Shown one piece after another: positions 7,985 to 12,861 of a stretch of DNA of 13,572 bases. Numbering within the stretch: the stretch's first letter is position 1; each line of letters opens with the position of its first letter. The notes under the pieces were generated by a model that made no database searches, was not told the DNA's origin, and saw only the letters and a program-made list of their open reading frames with translations. Location of the stretch: the IMG/VR virus record IMGVR_UViG_2703719354_000003, one strand, 5' to 3'. Source of the stretch: a virus. Taxonomy: Duplodnaviria > Heunggongvirae > Uroviricota > Caudoviricetes. The position numbers and the translations under genes are program-made.

Positions 7985-8170
7985 GCGGATCCACCGGCAG
8001 GCATTGCAGGTCCTGTTGTTGTACCGATGCCGACGGATATTTCCGCATCGGATACAGCGCACCGGATATCTCAGTCTGAAGGTTAACCGTCGCTGGCGGC
8101 TGTTATCGAAAGACGACGGCCGGAACTGGGAAGTAATGAGTCATGAACGTTATTCGGGAGAAATAAAGAA

Positions 8171-8563
8171 ATGATCGACAACCGCACCGCCAGCACCATT
8201 GACCAGGCATTACAGAAACATGATACACCCGTCGGCCCGTTATTTTTTGTAACACGCCACGGAAGAACAAAAAAATGCCTCACCCGAAAAACGGCAATTC
8301 GTTACCTGGCATTCTTTATGACCACCCGCGCTTTTGAACGTTCAGGATTCCGACAACGCTATCCTGACAAGCGTTTTATCTTCAACAGGAATGAGATATG
8401 GAAACGTGGAGAATCAACCACAGAGTATACCCGCGCACACCAGCGAACAATCAGACGACTGCGCAGACTCATCGCCAGGAAACAGTATACAGAAAAATGG
8501 TTCAGAAAATATGACACATGGAGCGCCGGATATTACGAACTGATGGCAACAAAACCATTCTGA
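8171..8563 (+). CDS. Hypothetical basic protein (130 aa)
   Basis: Arg/Lys-rich ORF in the operon orientation; GGGAG about 10 nt upstream of the ATG; function unknown. Confidence 0.45.
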   Translation: MIDNRTASTIDQALQKHDTPVGPLFFVTRHGRTKKCLTRKTAIRYLAFFMTTRAFERSGFRQRYPDKRFIFNRNEIWKRGESTTEYTRAHQRTIRRLRRLIARKQYTEKWFRKYDTWSAGYYELMATKPF

Positions 8564-8623: not shown

Positions 8624-8812
8624 ATGAACATTTATTTCAGAATAGTTATATCACTGGCAATTATCACATGTATTTACGGATTAATCGTTCCGGCCCTCAT
8701 ATCAATGAAGGATACGGTAGCAGTGATTTCTGGCTTTGCTCTGGCGTGTCTGACCCCGCCCTGCATTTATGCCATTTATAAGGGTCTTTCTTTTTCTAAG
8801 GATAAAAGATGA
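8624..8812 (+). CDS. Small membrane protein (62 aa, two predicted hydrophobic helices)
   Basis: Two hydrophobic stretches (IVISLAIITCIYGLIVPALI and VAVISGFALACLTPPCIYAIY); GGAGG just upstream of the ATG (short 3-nt spacer); stop overlaps the start of the SPFH gene (ATGA at 8809-8812). Confidence 0.55.
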   Translation: MNIYFRIVISLAIITCIYGLIVPALISMKDTVAVISGFALACLTPPCIYAIYKGLSFSKDKR

Positions 8813-9636
8813 AAAAATTACTTTTTGCTTTAGCCCTTGTTCTGCCGACCATTGGCCTTGTCGGTTGCGATCGCGTTGAGCCTGGTAATGTGGGCATCAA
8901 AGTAAACAAACTGGGCGACGATAAAGGCGTCGGTGAAGTGGTCGGTGTTGGGCGCTACTGGACGGGATGGAACACTGAGGTTTACATCTTCCCGACCTTT
9001 AAGCAGATGAAGACCTACGATGATCCATTCAGTTTCCAGATGAGTGACGGTACAACCATCGGCTATCACATCGGCGTGGCCTACAAAGTTGATCCATCCA
9101 AAGTTACCACAGTCTTTCAGACCTACCGCAAAGGCGTGGACGACATTACCGACACCGACCTGCGCCAGAAGATAGCCGACGCACTCAACCGACTGGCCAG
9201 CAAAATGACCACCGACAAATTTATCGACGGCGGCAAGTCTGAGCTGCTGGATGCAGCTCTTAAAGACATTCAGGAAGAAATGACGCCCATCGGTATTCAG
9301 GTAATGAGCCTCTCATATGTGGGTAAGCCGGAGTACCCACCTACTGTTATCGACAGCATTAATGCCAAAGTCACGGCGAACCAGAAAACCCTGCAACGCG
9401 AGCAGGAAGTAAAACAGCGCGAAGCGGAAGCCAACATGTTGCGCGCGGAAGCTGCCGGACAGGCAGATGCGATTCGCACAAAAGCCCAGGCCGAAGCCGA
9501 TGCTATTCGTTTACGCGGTGAAGCTCTGCGCCAGAACCCCGGTGTTATGGAGCTGGAAGCCATCAACAAGTGGAACGGTACACTGCCGCAATACATGACC
9601 AGCGGTGCCAACACACCATTTATTCAGGTTAAGTAA
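8809..9636 (+). CDS. SPFH/band-7 (stomatin/prohibitin/HflK-C-like) domain lipoprotein
   Basis: Signal peptide with lipobox LVGC (Cys 20); SPFH-like core followed by an Ala/Glu/Arg/Gln-rich coiled-coil (QREQEVKQREAEANMLRAEAAGQADAIRTKAQAEADAIRLRGEALRQNP) typical of HflK/C and stomatin-like proteins. Confidence 0.75.
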   Translation: MKKLLFALALVLPTIGLVGCDRVEPGNVGIKVNKLGDDKGVGEVVGVGRYWTGWNTEVYIFPTFKQMKTYDDPFSFQMSDGTTIGYHIGVAYKVDPSKVTTVFQTYRKGVDDITDTDLRQKIADALNRLASKMTTDKFIDGGKSELLDAALKDIQEEMTPIGIQVMSLSYVGKPEYPPTVIDSINAKVTANQKTLQREQEVKQREAEANMLRAEAAGQADAIRTKAQAEADAIRLRGEALRQNPGVMELEAINKWNGTLPQYMTSGANTPFIQVK

Positions 9637-9679
9637 TACATATGCCCGGTATTACACGCCGGGCTGTCTGGAGATAAAA

Positions 9680-10429
9680 ATGAATATTGTAACCATCAAC
9701 AACAAACAGTTTCCGGTAATCGAATATCGCGGTCAGCGTGTTGTGACATTTGCAATAATTGATGACGTCCACCAGCGCCCGGAAGGTACCGCCCGTGCTG
9801 CGTTTAACCGCAACCGTTCTCACTTTATCGAAGGGGTGGATTTTCTTGAAATGACTGCGGACGTAATACGTACGGAGTCACTTTCTGATGCCTTTGCCGC
9901 GCGAACTGCCAAAGGGATCATTCTTTTCGAGTCTGGTTACCTGATGTTGACGAAGCCTTTTAACGATGCTCTTGCATGGCAGGTTCAGCGCGAACTGGTT
10001 AACAGCTATTTCCGAACTCACGCGCCGCTGACGGAAATGGAGATGATCGCTGCAATGGCCGCCGATGCCGTTCGCCAGCAGAAGCGCCTGAGTCATGTTG
10101 AAGAGAAGATCGAAACGGTCACCAAAGCTGTGGAGAACATCAAACGCGGCACAATGCGCACCGGATATGTCGGTTACCGCCAGGTGGTAGCCAAAAGCGG
10201 AATGAGTGACGCCAAGTGTCGGAATCTGGTCAACGCCTACCACATCCCTACCGACACGCACGAATTTATGACTCCGGACGGTCTGTTGTCTCGCAGGGCT
10301 GTCGTCGAGCTTGAGACATTTATGGCGGCGTTCCACCAAATGATGTCAGAGGCTGAACCACGCGGCACACGCTGGTATCACCCGAAGATGGGGCTTTTTC
10401 AGGTAATCGGATGGGAGGATAAAGCATGA
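9680..10429 (+). CDS. KilA-N/ORF6N-domain protein (phage antirepressor-like)
   Basis: N-terminal MNIVTINNKQFPVIEYRGQRVVTFAIIDDV...GYLMLTKPFNDALAWQVQRELVNSYF resembles KilA-N/ORF6N domains of phage antirepressor or Rha-like proteins; GGAG 6 nt upstream of ATG 9680 (the ORF-track start 9605 is an in-frame upstream GTG). Confidence 0.6.
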   Translation: MNIVTINNKQFPVIEYRGQRVVTFAIIDDVHQRPEGTARAAFNRNRSHFIEGVDFLEMTADVIRTESLSDAFAARTAKGIILFESGYLMLTKPFNDALAWQVQRELVNSYFRTHAPLTEMEMIAAMAADAVRQQKRLSHVEEKIETVTKAVENIKRGTMRTGYVGYRQVVAKSGMSDAKCRNLVNAYHIPTDTHEFMTPDGLLSRRAVVELETFMAAFHQMMSEAEPRGTRWYHPKMGLFQVIGWEDKA

Positions 10430-10994
10430 TCATCCAGTCAAAACTTATTCGCGCCGCTCTGGTGTGCGCTGCTAAAAACGACGTTCGTTATTACCTGAAC
10501 GGTCTTCACATCACGCCAAAACATATTGAGGCAACCAATGGTTTCGTAGCACTGCGCATGACTCACGGCATCCGGACGAAGAAAAACATCATTGTCCAGT
10601 TCGAAGGTGGCGTCCCGGCCAAAGCCGAAACGACAGAGCTGATTTTTAGTAAAGAGCCGATCCTGTTCATCGCGACCAGTTTCAGCGCCGGCTGTCCATT
10701 ACCGGCATTAAATTGGTGGACGGTTGTTTTCCGGATTTGGAACGCATCATTCCGAAAAAATTTGACCTCTGTACACACCCGGTGATCCAGGCGGGTTACC
10801 TGAGTTATCCAGAGAAGATGTTTGGTCGTGAGCGTAAATTTATTCCCGTCCAGTTACGTTCCTCCGGTGACGGGCAAGCGGTCAGAATTCAGTTTGATTC
10901 CATCATCAACTCAATGTATGGCAATCCTGAATTTGTTGTGATGCCTTGTCGTGATCATGGCGATTTCAATGTGGCTCAGGAGCATCCGGAATGA
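10426..10994 (+). pseudogene. DnaN (DNA polymerase III beta sliding clamp) domain II-III homologue, interrupted by a frameshift near 10687-10697
   Basis: Frame 1 (10426-10785) encodes ...AKNDVRYYLNGLHI...ATNGFVALRM..., matching the E. coli DnaN domain II start (QDVRYYLNGM...ATDGHRLAV); frame 0 (to 10994) encodes ...RLSITGIKLVDGCFPDLERIIPKK...EFVVMPCRD, matching DnaN FIFTSKLVDGRFPDYRRVLPK and the C-terminal AYVVMPMRL. Homology continues across the frame change, so the two ORFs are one disrupted gene. Confidence 0.6.
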
Positions 10995-11113
10995 AAATCG
11001 AATACCAGGACGCCGCAGGAGGTGAATCAATGAGCTGGCCTGATGCAATCGTAACTCTGGGGGTGGTATTCGCAGTAGCGTTTGTTGTGTTCTCAATTTG
11101 TCGATGGGGATAA
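10991..11113 (+). CDS. Small single-pass membrane peptide (40 aa; alternative start at 11030 gives 27 aa)
   Basis: AGGAGG (11017-11022) 7 nt upstream of ATG 11030; in-frame ATG 10991 overlaps the upstream stop (ATGA); hydrophobic core AIVTLGVVFAVAFVVFSI. Below the ORF-track length cutoff. Confidence 0.4.
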   Translation: MKIEYQDAAGGESMSWPDAIVTLGVVFAVAFVVFSICRWG

Positions 11114-11117
11114 CCAC

Positions 11118-11360
11118 ATGTTCGCTTTGATTCAACGCGGTCAGATATACACGGACAGAGCCGGATACCCCGTGGTGATTACTCGCATCACTGAGCACTC
11201 AGTGTTCTTTCGACGGATGGACGGACGATCCGGGCGGGTACGCATTGGTGAGTTAAACTGCCTGTTCGAACATATTGACCACCAGGAGTACCGCAAAATT
11301 CTCGCGGACACTGAGCAGGAAAAGCACCTGAAAAAATTACGAGCCATAAAAAGGAAGTAA
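11118..11360 (+). CDS. Hypothetical protein (80 aa)
   Basis: ATG 11118 with GGGGA 8 nt upstream, 4 nt after the preceding stop; the ORF-track start 11082 is an upstream TTG. Function unknown. Confidence 0.5.
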   Translation: MFALIQRGQIYTDRAGYPVVITRITEHSVFFRRMDGRSGRVRIGELNCLFEHIDHQEYRKILADTEQEKHLKKLRAIKRK

Positions 11361-11363
11361 AGA

Positions 11364-11510
11364 ATGAATAAAGCATTTGAACAATGGGTCCACCAGCGTT
11401 ACGGCAATCGCTATGACCTGACGCGAGATGTTGACGGCTTCTACTGTCGTGAAGTTGTGAAGCGAATGTTTGACGTGTGGTGCCACTGCCGTGGGCTGAG
11501 TGTTATGTGA
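11364..11510 (+). CDS. Small Cys-containing hypothetical protein (48 aa)
   Basis: AGGAAG (11352-11357) 6 nt upstream of ATG 11364; fills the gap between flanking genes exactly; contains YCRE...WCHC, a possible metal-binding pair. Below the ORF-track cutoff. Confidence 0.4.
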   Translation: MNKAFEQWVHQRYGNRYDLTRDVDGFYCREVVKRMFDVWCHCRGLSVM

Positions 11511-11518
11511 GGTGATGT

Positions 11519-11728
11519 ATGGGGCTGGATTGCGTGCCTATATCAACCTACTGCCGCGACGCGGGAGAAACGGTTGATGCCGTTAACAAACGGATACAAA
11601 GAGGAATATGGAAAGAAGGGGTTCATGTATTAAAAGTCGACGGAGTTAAAGAACGCTGGGTCGACTTAATAGAGGTTTCAAAATGGGCAAGAAAGAACAA
11701 GGATTATTATCTCTGCCAAGAGGAGTAA
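11519..11728 (+). CDS. Excisionase-like small protein (assigned by position upstream of and overlapping int)
   Basis: 69-aa basic protein immediately upstream of and overlapping the integrase gene, the typical xis-int arrangement; sequence resemblance to excisionases is only tentative. Confidence 0.45.
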   Translation: MGLDCVPISTYCRDAGETVDAVNKRIQRGIWKEGVHVLKVDGVKERWVDLIEVSKWARKNKDYYLCQEE

Positions 11729-12861
11729 CTATTCGTAAGCATAAAACTGCTTCAACACTAGTTATCACTTTCACATATAAAGGGGTTCTTTGCAGGGAGC
11801 CCCTGTCTCGGCTTGAGGCAAATACACGTGGTATTAAATATGCTGAGCGCCTGCTAGGGGAGATACAAAATCAGATCGCCAGCGGAACGTTTGAATATGC
11901 GAAATATTTCCCCAGTTCCAAAAAACTGGAGTTATTCGGTGTAGTAAAGAAAACCAAAAATATTAAGTCCTATCTTGATGAATACCTGAAAATTTGCATG
12001 AACCGCAATCTGTCGCCGTCAACCATTGGCGGTTACGAAAAATGTCTATCAGCACTATCAGAACTACATAAACTACATGTAACAGAATTGACGCCTGCGG
12101 TACTAAAAAATTGGATAGCCAGCCGAAAAACTAAGCTGAAAACAATCAGGAATAACCTGTCATTTCTGCGCAGCGCCATTGATGAGGCTGTAACTGATGG
12201 CCTGTTGACTATTAACCCGGTAACTCTTGTCAGCGCCAGCCGGTATCACGTGGTCGACAGTAAACCGAACGCCGACGATTACGAAGTTGATCCGTTTGCG
12301 CCTGCGGAAACCAGTGCCATATATCAGCACTGCAAGTATCAGGAATGGCAGAATCTGTTCCGCTTCGCCTTCAATACAGGGCTACGCAGCTCTGAGCTAT
12401 GCGCATTACGTTGGACCGATATCGACTTTATAGGTAATACAGCGCACATACAGGCGGCCAGTGTCGTAGGGGTACTTAAAGGCACCAAGACAAAAGCCGG
12501 TACCCGTAAGGTGGAGCTGAACAGTGAGGCGCTGGCGGCCCTGCAGGCGCAGAAGCAATACACCTTTATGAAAAGTGAGTTCATATTCAGCGATCCGAAA
12601 ACGGGAGATCCCTGGACGAACGCCGACGCTATCCGTAAAAAAGCATGGGTGCCGACCCTGAAAAAAGCTGGTGTGCGCTACCGTAACCCGTACCAGACGC
12701 GCCACACATTCGCCACCAGACACATTAGCCAGGGTGTAAACCTTTTCTGGCTTGCCGGGCAGATGGGGCATAAGGGGCCGGAAATGCTGTTCCGCAATTA
12801 CGGTAAATACCTGGCTGAATACGACGGGAAAACCGCAATGGAATCTGGAATGAAGAAGTGA
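11683..12861 (+). CDS. int: Tyrosine recombinase / phage integrase (lambda-Int family)
   Basis: C-terminal catalytic signature: R in NTGLRSSELCALRW, H-x-x-R in RHTFATRHI, and the nucleophile Tyr in HKGPEMLFRNYGKY; N-terminal arm-type region; 392 aa. Confidence 0.9.
   Translation: MGKKEQGLLSLPRGVTIRKHKTASTLVITFTYKGVLCREPLSRLEANTRGIKYAERLLGEIQNQIASGTFEYAKYFPSSKKLELFGVVKKTKNIKSYLDEYLKICMNRNLSPSTIGGYEKCLSALSELHKLHVTELTPAVLKNWIASRKTKLKTIRNNLSFLRSAIDEAVTDGLLTINPVTLVSASRYHVVDSKPNADDYEVDPFAPAETSAIYQHCKYQEWQNLFRFAFNTGLRSSELCALRWTDIDFIGNTAHIQAASVVGVLKGTKTKAGTRKVELNSEALAALQAQKQYTFMKSEFIFSDPKTGDPWTNADAIRKKAWVPTLKKAGVRYRNPYQTRHTFATRHISQGVNLFWLAGQMGHKGPEMLFRNYGKYLAEYDGKTAMESGMKK

Follow-up and report, generated by a model that had tools for sequence, protein, structure and literature searches.

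The window analysed here, 13,572 nucleotides of a Caudoviricetes virus (IMG/VR record IMGVR_UViG_2703719354_000003), carries at positions 11030-11113 a short gene that probably encodes a 27-residue single-pass membrane microprotein of an unnamed family, found mostly behind Ea22-like/DUF551 genes. This was judged the best overall explanation of a locus that had been described, in an initial annotation made without database searches, as a small hydrophobic peptide of 27-40 residues inside a lambdoid early operon. Sequence matches place the family in lambdoid and Shiga-toxin (Stx) prophages, P1-like phage-plasmids and some large Escherichia coli myoviruses. Comparison of these relatives makes it very probable that the open reading frame (ORF) is a real, conserved membrane-peptide gene, and we are almost as confident that the 27-residue form is the functional unit. 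The features at the centre of the analysis are as follows.

11017-11025, plus strand: Shine-Dalgarno (SD) sequence AGGAGGTGA, a perfect 9-nt match to the anti-SD
11030-11113, plus strand: core gene of 27 codons and a TAA stop, product MSWPDAIVTLGVVFAVAFVVFSICRWG, the family's conserved unit
11036-11107, plus strand: predicted transmembrane helix, Trp3 to Trp26 of the 27-residue peptide (AlphaFold2, hydrophobicity)

On the plus strand, a 40-codon ORF runs from an ATG at 10991 to the TAA stop at 11111-11113, with the translation MKIEYQDAAGGESMSWPDAIVTLGVVFAVAFVVFSICRWG, and the 27-residue peptide starts at an internal ATG (11030-11032) of this frame. The spacer between GGAGG and ATG 11030 is 7 nt; a weaker SD, AGGAG, lies 8 nt before ATG 10991. 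Upstream, the TGA of the preceding ORF (10992-10994) overlaps ATG 10991 as ATGA, and downstream the DUF4222 gene starts at 11118, 4 nt past the peptide stop. The initial annotation had placed here, between coupled genes, a small ORF at 10991-11113 with a near-perfect SD, and each part of that description held. Its size range was right at the lower end, the 27-residue form being the evolutionary unit; the 40-residue form proved to be a context-specific extension. To gauge how often such an arrangement arises by chance, ORFs of 20-60 residues with GGAGG at -15 to -5 of the ATG and a 19-residue Kyte-Doolittle mean of at least 2.0 were counted. The window contains one, the peptide ORF, against 0.007 per dinucleotide shuffle (2 in 300).

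Relatives were gathered by anchoring on DUF4222, by a degenerate DNA pattern, and by anchoring on the tail of the upstream gene. The DUF4222-anchored set, which is blind to the peptide, comprised 85 loci (80 IMG/VR contigs, 3 annotated records and 2 loci from a genome scan, which yielded these only). An intact ORF was present in 84 of them, the remaining one (L074) being a homopolymer frameshift. The pattern M-x-W-P-[DE]-A-x18-R-W-G-TAA retrieved at least 120 loci. Anchoring on an upstream tail PPQEVxQ-stop with an overlapping start gave 122 matches, 90 of which were followed by the exact 27-codon family ORF and 2 by truncated copies (90 of 92 copies intact); at the remaining loci other genes follow, mostly xis-like. 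With a finder that required a 27-codon ORF, 253 copies were collected, representing 64 distinct DNA versions and 43 distinct peptides. Nearly every copy in the flank-anchored sets keeps the exact 27-codon length, and nucleotide divergence across the family reaches 38%.

Comparison of these copies showed the frame, its exact length, the SD and the ATGA overlap to be conserved under purifying selection between mosaic flanks. The pooled ratio of nonsynonymous to synonymous polymorphism (pN/pS) over codons 2-27 was 0.36, and pairwise ratios of nonsynonymous to synonymous substitution (dN/dS) between the window and YYZ-2008, 933W, ArgO145, Av-05, an IncY plasmid and Sakai Sp6 were 0.11-0.43, at 20-31 nt differences over 81. 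Over residues 7-24, the entropies at codon positions 1, 2 and 3 were 0.57, 0.30 and 0.97, respectively, the third being about 3 times the second; of 54 sequences, all have stops in one of the other two sense frames and 51 in the other. Among 108 distinct 204-nt segments, mean pairwise identity was 0.73 over the SD and spacer (columns -13 to -1) and 0.78 over the ORF, falling to 0.35-0.50 upstream and to 0.38-0.45 from the first base past the stop. The conserved block thus extends exactly from the SD through the stop. An SD-like core is present in 106 of the 108 segments and the ATGA stop/start overlap in all 108. Only T, S, N or I occurs at residue 2; their codons begin with A, which leaves the upstream TGA in place; the stop is TAA in 61 of the 64 DNA versions. 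Conservation of the frame and its ribosome-binding site in related prophages was the check that the initial annotation had set for itself, and by these counts both are conserved.

Two other coding arrangements at the locus were rejected. A long antisense ORF (10911-11198, minus strand) spans the peptide gene in the window, and in phage Stx2-II the corresponding long antisense ORF is annotated as ORF C38 (L291 101-850, minus strand). It has no coding-type conservation, the synonymous pattern not lying in the antisense frame, which stays open because the sense frame avoids TTA, CTA and TCA. A frameshift fusion with the upstream protein was likewise discarded, there being no slippery site at the overlap.

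The 40-residue form can be understood from what lies upstream of the core gene.

10426-10994, plus strand: beta-clamp-like gene (phrog_3007; weak DNA_pol3_beta_2), the upstream neighbour, a pseudogene
10991-11029, plus strand: 13-codon N-terminal extension MKIEYQDAAGGES of the 40-residue ORF, context-specific, which may or may not be translated
11010-11033, plus strand: remnant of the 3' end of an Ea22-like/DUF551 gene, read as T-P-Q-E-V-N-Q-stop in a different frame, its last bases being the ATGA overlap

Compared with the intact 189-residue homologue of strain CAU16175, the beta-clamp-like gene lacks 1 nt (G) near 10662/10663, and the Prokaryotic Genome Annotation Pipeline (PGAP) flags the same gene as 'frameshifted' in E. 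coli E110019. The extension is seen only behind this gene, as in the window. At the 59 loci of the commonest context, the in-frame sequence after the preceding stop reads ANAGRQAGGES, without an ATG, GTG or TTG, so that only the 27-residue product is possible there. P0001-P0003 share the extension without a single change, although their cores diverge to 68% (P0003); the extension hence travels with the upstream gene; the 40-residue form accounts for 3 clusters only in a collection of 5.8 billion proteins. Homology to phages with a different upstream gene starts at window position 11011 (query position 612), and the window retains CGCCGCAGGAGGTGAATCAATGA, with which the DUF551 genes of L002, L003 and numerous further loci terminate, encoding (P)PQEVNQ-stop there. 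This homology break places a recombination joint with the present upstream gene around 11008-11011, just 5' of the old tail. The 40-codon ORF is accordingly the family gene plus a by-product of that joint, since homology begins at 11011 and the old tail is retained.

The 27-residue peptide is predicted to be almost entirely one hydrophobic helix. AlphaFold2 predicted a single helix at residues 16-39 of the 40-residue form, corresponding to Trp3 to Trp26 of the core, with predicted local distance difference test (pLDDT) averages of 94 and 87 over the last two 10-residue blocks. No secondary structure was predicted in the extension, residues 1-10 averaging a pLDDT of 54. The Kyte-Doolittle 19-residue mean over residues 6-24 is 2.76 in the window peptide and 2.1-2.8 across variants, so the small hydrophobic single-helix peptide proposed at the outset was recovered. 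The hydrophobic moment of the helix is 0.05-0.18 across variants; that of the toxins TisB, DinQ and ShoB is 0.27-0.52. Near-invariant residues are W3, P4, D/E5, A6, G11, A15, A17, C24, R25, W26 and G27, with A13, Y/F21, S22 and I23 largely kept and positions 8, 10, 12, 14, 16 and 19 free, so that the conserved small residues (A6, G11, A13, A15, A17 and C24) are interspersed with variable positions.

From the acidic N-terminus (Asp5) and Arg25 at the C-terminus, an N-out/C-in topology is predicted. The two Trp residues, 23 residues apart, would fit a helix just spanning the bilayer with almost nothing outside the membrane; any activity of the peptide must then lie within the membrane, because there is virtually no extramembrane part. 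The Pf3 coat protein has a very short acidic N-terminal tail, one helix and a basic residue after it, and takes an N-out/C-in topology by YidC-type insertion. The peptide shares this charge arrangement, as an analogy of topology only: the Pf3 coat is a 44-residue virion protein of a filamentous phage with no homology to the peptide, the insertion of which is a prediction. A lipoprotein or signal peptide was rejected by inspection against the lipobox consensus (basic n-region, small residue right before Cys): the N-terminus of the peptide is acidic, the residue at -1 in Y-S-I-C is Ile, and the Cys is followed by just 3 residues.

The genes upstream of the peptide vary among relatives, but at least 98 of 116 carry a DUF551-type tail, a second tail ending in RNGLISVEDILR, or an N-terminal IAL[AV]SL motif, taken as a marker of Ea22. 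Otherwise unrelated upstream proteins share a C-terminal QEVNQ-stop or QEVRQ-stop (e.g. L147 11203-12148), because those codons form the SD of the peptide; in one Ea22-like class only the first 16 residues of DUF551 are left, joined directly to the QEV tail. Together with its SD, the peptide forms a small, separate mosaic module, with the upstream Ea22-like gene as the only fairly constant partner. In the window, that partner has been replaced by the frameshifted beta-clamp-like gene. Small membrane peptides seem to accumulate in the slot behind Ea22-like genes.

Downstream, DUF4222 follows in about 35 related loci, and about 35 of 121 related loci, the window not among them, have a hok/sok module 150-240 nt further on; examples are hokW/sokW of 933W (L206 2176-2450) and the hokC-like module of Sakai Sp6 (L210 2756-2968). 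Another membrane ORF of 34 residues, MSDDISLAMEGALAVIAVVGVYCLVVFLMDRLGN, follows in 14 loci and in Sakai Sp6, where it is ECs_5710 = XECs145 (L210 2463-2567; L091). XECs145 resembles the peptide in being a long-unannotated single-transmembrane-helix product, adjoins it immediately downstream and has support from ribosome profiling (Ribo-seq), but it is unrelated in sequence and, at 34 residues, passes the 30-residue cut-off of the study concerned (PMC5597208). Where such loci have hok further on, three tiny hydrophobic ORFs stand in a row. The remaining loci show no consistent ORF downstream. In CPS-53 of E. coli K-12, yfdS (DUF551) is followed directly by yfdT without the peptide, and K-12 small-protein Ribo-seq is for this reason uninformative. 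In one further locus (L257, minus strand, anchor hit at position 874), the slot with the PPQEVxQ-stop tail and ATGA holds a different 40-residue hydrophobic ORF, MNKCNALLYAMVIGFGLAAGIRVYIAWESLINLAWSAIRG.

The initial annotation had pointed to Kil-like factors and type I toxin-like peptides. On that reading the product would be a host-killing or growth-arresting membrane toxin that harms the inner membrane once the early operon is active. The peptide is small and hydrophobic and lies in an early operon, where lambdoid phages hold host-shutoff genes; the nearby hok/sok modules show that the slot attracts membrane toxins, and the Hok helix is likewise low in hydrophobic moment. Of the traits of type I systems such as Hok/Sok, TisB/IstR, Ldr, Ibs, ShoB and ZorO, the locus has the small hydrophobic membrane peptide; neither an antisense RNA with a promoter nor a separate transcription unit with a structured, repressed mRNA was found, the ORF lying in a polycistron. 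A crude consensus scan of 10400-11800 gave no promoter-like site on either strand, no Rfam RNA family matched at the peptide locus, the mRNA folds less well than its shuffles (z +1.5) and the antisense strand is unstructured (z +1.2). Translation of type I toxins is tightly repressed, and the perfect SD and the ATGA coupling point the other way. Hok, at about 50 residues, has a Cys-containing tail in the periplasm, and its locus adds a mok leader ORF, a folded mRNA and the antisense RNA Sok; the peptide shares none of this, even though Hok/Gef products are also small, hydrophobic and single-helix, occur in the same prophage region and are adjacent in 933W and Sakai Sp6. Lambda Kil, Rac KilR and Qin DicB share with the peptide only that they are short lambdoid early-left products dispensable for phage growth; they are soluble and act on FtsZ or MinC, whereas the peptide is a predicted membrane helix without similarity to them. 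Lambda Kil is not hydrophobic (Kyte-Doolittle 0.67). No similarity to Hok, Kil or any other family was detected, the Kil and Hok models being covered by the Pfam/NCBIfam search only if the library holds them. In addition, the helix contains no charged or polar residues and has no extramembrane domain, up to 4 copies occur per genome, and the region is transcribed and ribosome-covered in Sakai grown in lysogeny broth (LB) without evident harm, an indirect indication. With no antisense promoter, structured mRNA or Kil/Hok similarity, the toxin reading is left unsupported and was considered unlikely.

A product of 40 residues could instead be the one that matters in the window, with the internal start secondary. 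ATG 10991 does overlap the upstream stop and has its AGGAG, PGAP calls this form, and it is kept in all window-type loci. The extension is, however, absent from the commonest context, where it could not be initiated; it stays constant while the core diverges, and so moves with the upstream gene; it is predicted to be disordered; the internal SD is far stronger; and coupling from the upstream gene is lost through its frameshift. We regard this version as improbable, somewhat more so than the toxin. It is also conceivable that no functional protein is made and that the block of about 100 nt is a cis element, recombination linker or coupling spacer between the Ea22-like gene and the next one. The block does coincide exactly with module boundaries, the genes to either side differing between loci, and some of its sequence also provides the stop of the upstream gene and a weak SD for the next one. 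Yet third-position substitutions dominate (dN/dS 0.1-0.4), a single frameshifted copy (L074) occurs in the 85 neighbour-anchored loci despite up to 38% divergence, W3, P4, G11, C24, R25 and W26 are kept through synonymous change, and the downstream gene changes from locus to locus or is missing. A regulatory leader or arrest peptide, in which C-R-W-G-stop would stall the ribosome and control downstream genes, could draw on the near-invariance of the last four residues, on the TAA in 61 of 64 versions and on a next start 2-4 nt away in several contexts. Those downstream genes, however, differ or are replaced by sequence without a nearby ORF; conservation extends to the hydrophobic core and to WP(D/E)A at the N-terminus; the length of the hydrophobic stretch, with a Trp on either side, suits a membrane span; and no attenuator-like structure was predicted. 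Given codon-level selection and variable downstream genes, both a purely cis-acting role and a leader or arrest role are unlikely, the former very much so and the latter marginally more.

The membrane microprotein remains the preferred reading, and several points weigh against it. The pattern scan fixed seven residues by construction, which was offset by the gene-anchored sets and by a looser, identity-based finder. The pairwise dN/dS values are not phylogenetically independent, much of the sample being E. coli prophage DNA of shared descent. Conservation of W26-G27-TAA could partly serve the next gene as a weak SD, and that of codon 2 could partly serve the TGA of the upstream gene. Translation and membrane location of the peptide are inferred from its sequence, and composition and analogy are the whole basis of the modulator mechanism described below. 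A uniformly hydrophobic helix is compatible with toxicity, the moment of the Hok helix also being low (0.14). Finally, the Ribo-seq study of Sakai left out ORFs under 30 residues (PMC5597208). In that study, XECs145 of Sakai Sp6 had 346 reads per kilobase per million mapped reads (RPKM) and a coverage of 0.99 in LB (PMC5597208). As defined there, XECs145 overlaps the last ~25 nt of the peptide ORF, a signal that is only suggestive for the peptide because of the exclusion of ORFs under 30 residues; it weakly suggests that the region is expressed without harm in LB-grown Sakai.

As for what the microprotein might do, we tentatively propose, as the likeliest role, an intramembrane helix-packing modulator, by analogy with known small proteins. 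The strong SD of the peptide would drive its translation from the early-left polycistronic mRNA, joined in most contexts by termination-reinitiation at the ATGA. In the inner membrane the peptide would adopt an N-out/C-in orientation that puts Arg25 inside and one Trp (Trp3, Trp26) at each interface. Helix-helix packing inside the bilayer would then occur via the conserved small residues A6, G11, A13, A15, A17 and C24, the partner being either further copies of the peptide or a host or phage membrane protein, which would thereby be modulated; no pore would be formed. As modelled, the peptide has the traits of small membrane modulators (at most 50 residues, one transmembrane helix, conserved packing residues). 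Among the proteins compared, MgrB, AcrZ, KdpF, MgtS and PmrR are small bacterial inner-membrane regulatory proteins (reviewed in PMC12648545). Like the peptide, MgrB-type proteins have at most 50 residues and essentially one transmembrane helix, are encoded in operons and are often missed by annotation. They act by binding larger membrane proteins, and the likeness is one of functional analogy only; the peptide differs in being phage-borne, shorter than most and without sequence similarity to them.

A more specific role, as the membrane-embedded partner or effector of the translationally coupled Ea22-like developmental regulators, was thought doubtful, on a par with the 40-residue product. If it were correct, part of the ea22/exo-xis-type lysis-lysogeny and host-physiology phenotypes of Stx phages would depend on a 27-residue gene, and clones or deletions of the upstream gene would disturb the peptide gene. 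Engineered deletions or C-terminal tags of Ea22-like genes would in any case alter the peptide, because its start overlaps the Ea22-like stop and its SD is formed by the last codons of that gene. This is a practical caveat for developmental work on Stx phages, in which edits of Ea22-like genes also touch the peptide. The family is notable chiefly because it is so widespread in E. coli and Stx phages and because it overlaps Ea22-like genes that are being actively studied; it is also a clean example of a gene below the length limits of gene callers, at 84 nt including the stop.

To establish the distribution of the family, the consensus peptide was used in tblastn searches. Matches were found in 93 phage records, including 933W, VT1-Sakai, VT2-Sakai, BP-4795, Min27, Stx2-II, ArgO145 and YYZ-2008, as well as the large phages Av-05 and vB_EcoM_TH18; P1-like SJ46 gave a weak partial match (E 0.4, 70% of the query). 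A further 181 plasmids were matched, mostly of 90-100 kb and non-mobilizable (Escherichia 155, Salmonella 25, Klebsiella 1). These carriers are probably P1-like phage-plasmids; one that was inspected is IncY. A blastn search with window positions 11011-11117 found at least 1012 of 5426 complete E. coli genomes (~19%) to carry the locus, with the copy number per genome as given above. An 81%-identical copy of the peptide occurs in Actinobacillus phage vB_Apl-pPE4 (PP818812.1 13106-13183), with Actinobacillus pleuropneumoniae as the recorded host, far outside the otherwise Enterobacteriaceae-only range; this may be a host mis-assignment.

The locus had initially been called unannotated, which stands for the 27-residue form in the records of other contexts that were examined. 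In PhiR12_1, YYZ-2008, 933W, ArgO145, Av-05, the IncY plasmid, Sakai Sp6 and Stx2-II this form carries no annotation; in those eight records it sits in a ~82-nt unannotated gap, starting 4 nt inside the upstream gene. The 'hypothetical protein (x2)' at the match in Stx2-II was dismissed as the long antisense ORF call. For the 40-residue form the description failed, since PGAP annotates it in the E. coli E110019 prophage and in strain CAU16175; the respective 'hypothetical protein' entries are WP_001467557.1 and WP_021501359.1. Absence because of length, as had been supposed, is right for the shorter form: the minimum gene length of Prodigal is 90 nt.

Neither Pfam (at E ≤ 1, with the 27- and 40-residue forms) nor NCBIfam gave a family match, and in PHROG only phrog_8826, a family of unknown function, appeared, at a non-significant E of 0.3-0.4. 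Among 1.84 billion representative proteins, the search returned the same family only, with artefactual N- or C-terminal extensions, and neither distant relatives nor any larger protein with the peptide as a domain. A literature search for the peptide string 'SICRWG' gave no match, and term searches of the exo-xis papers examined turned up no trace of the peptide. Neither 'CRWG' nor 'WPEA' occurs in the main text of the type I toxin survey by Fozo (2010), and in a 2025 review of small membrane proteins prophages come up only where type I toxins are discussed. The family appears to be undescribed and unnamed; single-helix microproteins as a class are already known and under-annotated.

The window itself shares 99.9% identity with a lambdoid prophage in E. 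coli E110019. A LexA-family (cI-like) repressor gene (5597-6289) is followed by plus-strand genes up to xis (11519-11728) and int (11683-12861), and from this run the placement of the peptide inside an early-left operon of lambdoid type is fair, in line with the early operon of the initial annotation. The downstream neighbour of the peptide is the following.

11118-11360, plus strand: DUF4222 gene (Pfam PF13973, E 8e-14), annotated in L001

In the RefSeq assembly of E110019, an IS3-family element lies inside the DUF4222 gene (L211 11907-13120, against window position about 11200); the window is without it. According to the RefSeq annotation of the identical prophage, the early-left operon also contains a ParE-family toxin-like ORF (window 7956-8174, plus strand), an SPFH/Band-7 membrane-associated protein (8809-9636, plus strand) and an ORF6N (KilA-N-type) protein (9605-10429, plus strand). 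At the edge of the window (1-78, minus strand), a partial, edge-cut match to the Rfam small RNA STnc100 was seen, at 48.7 bits against a gathering score of 47.

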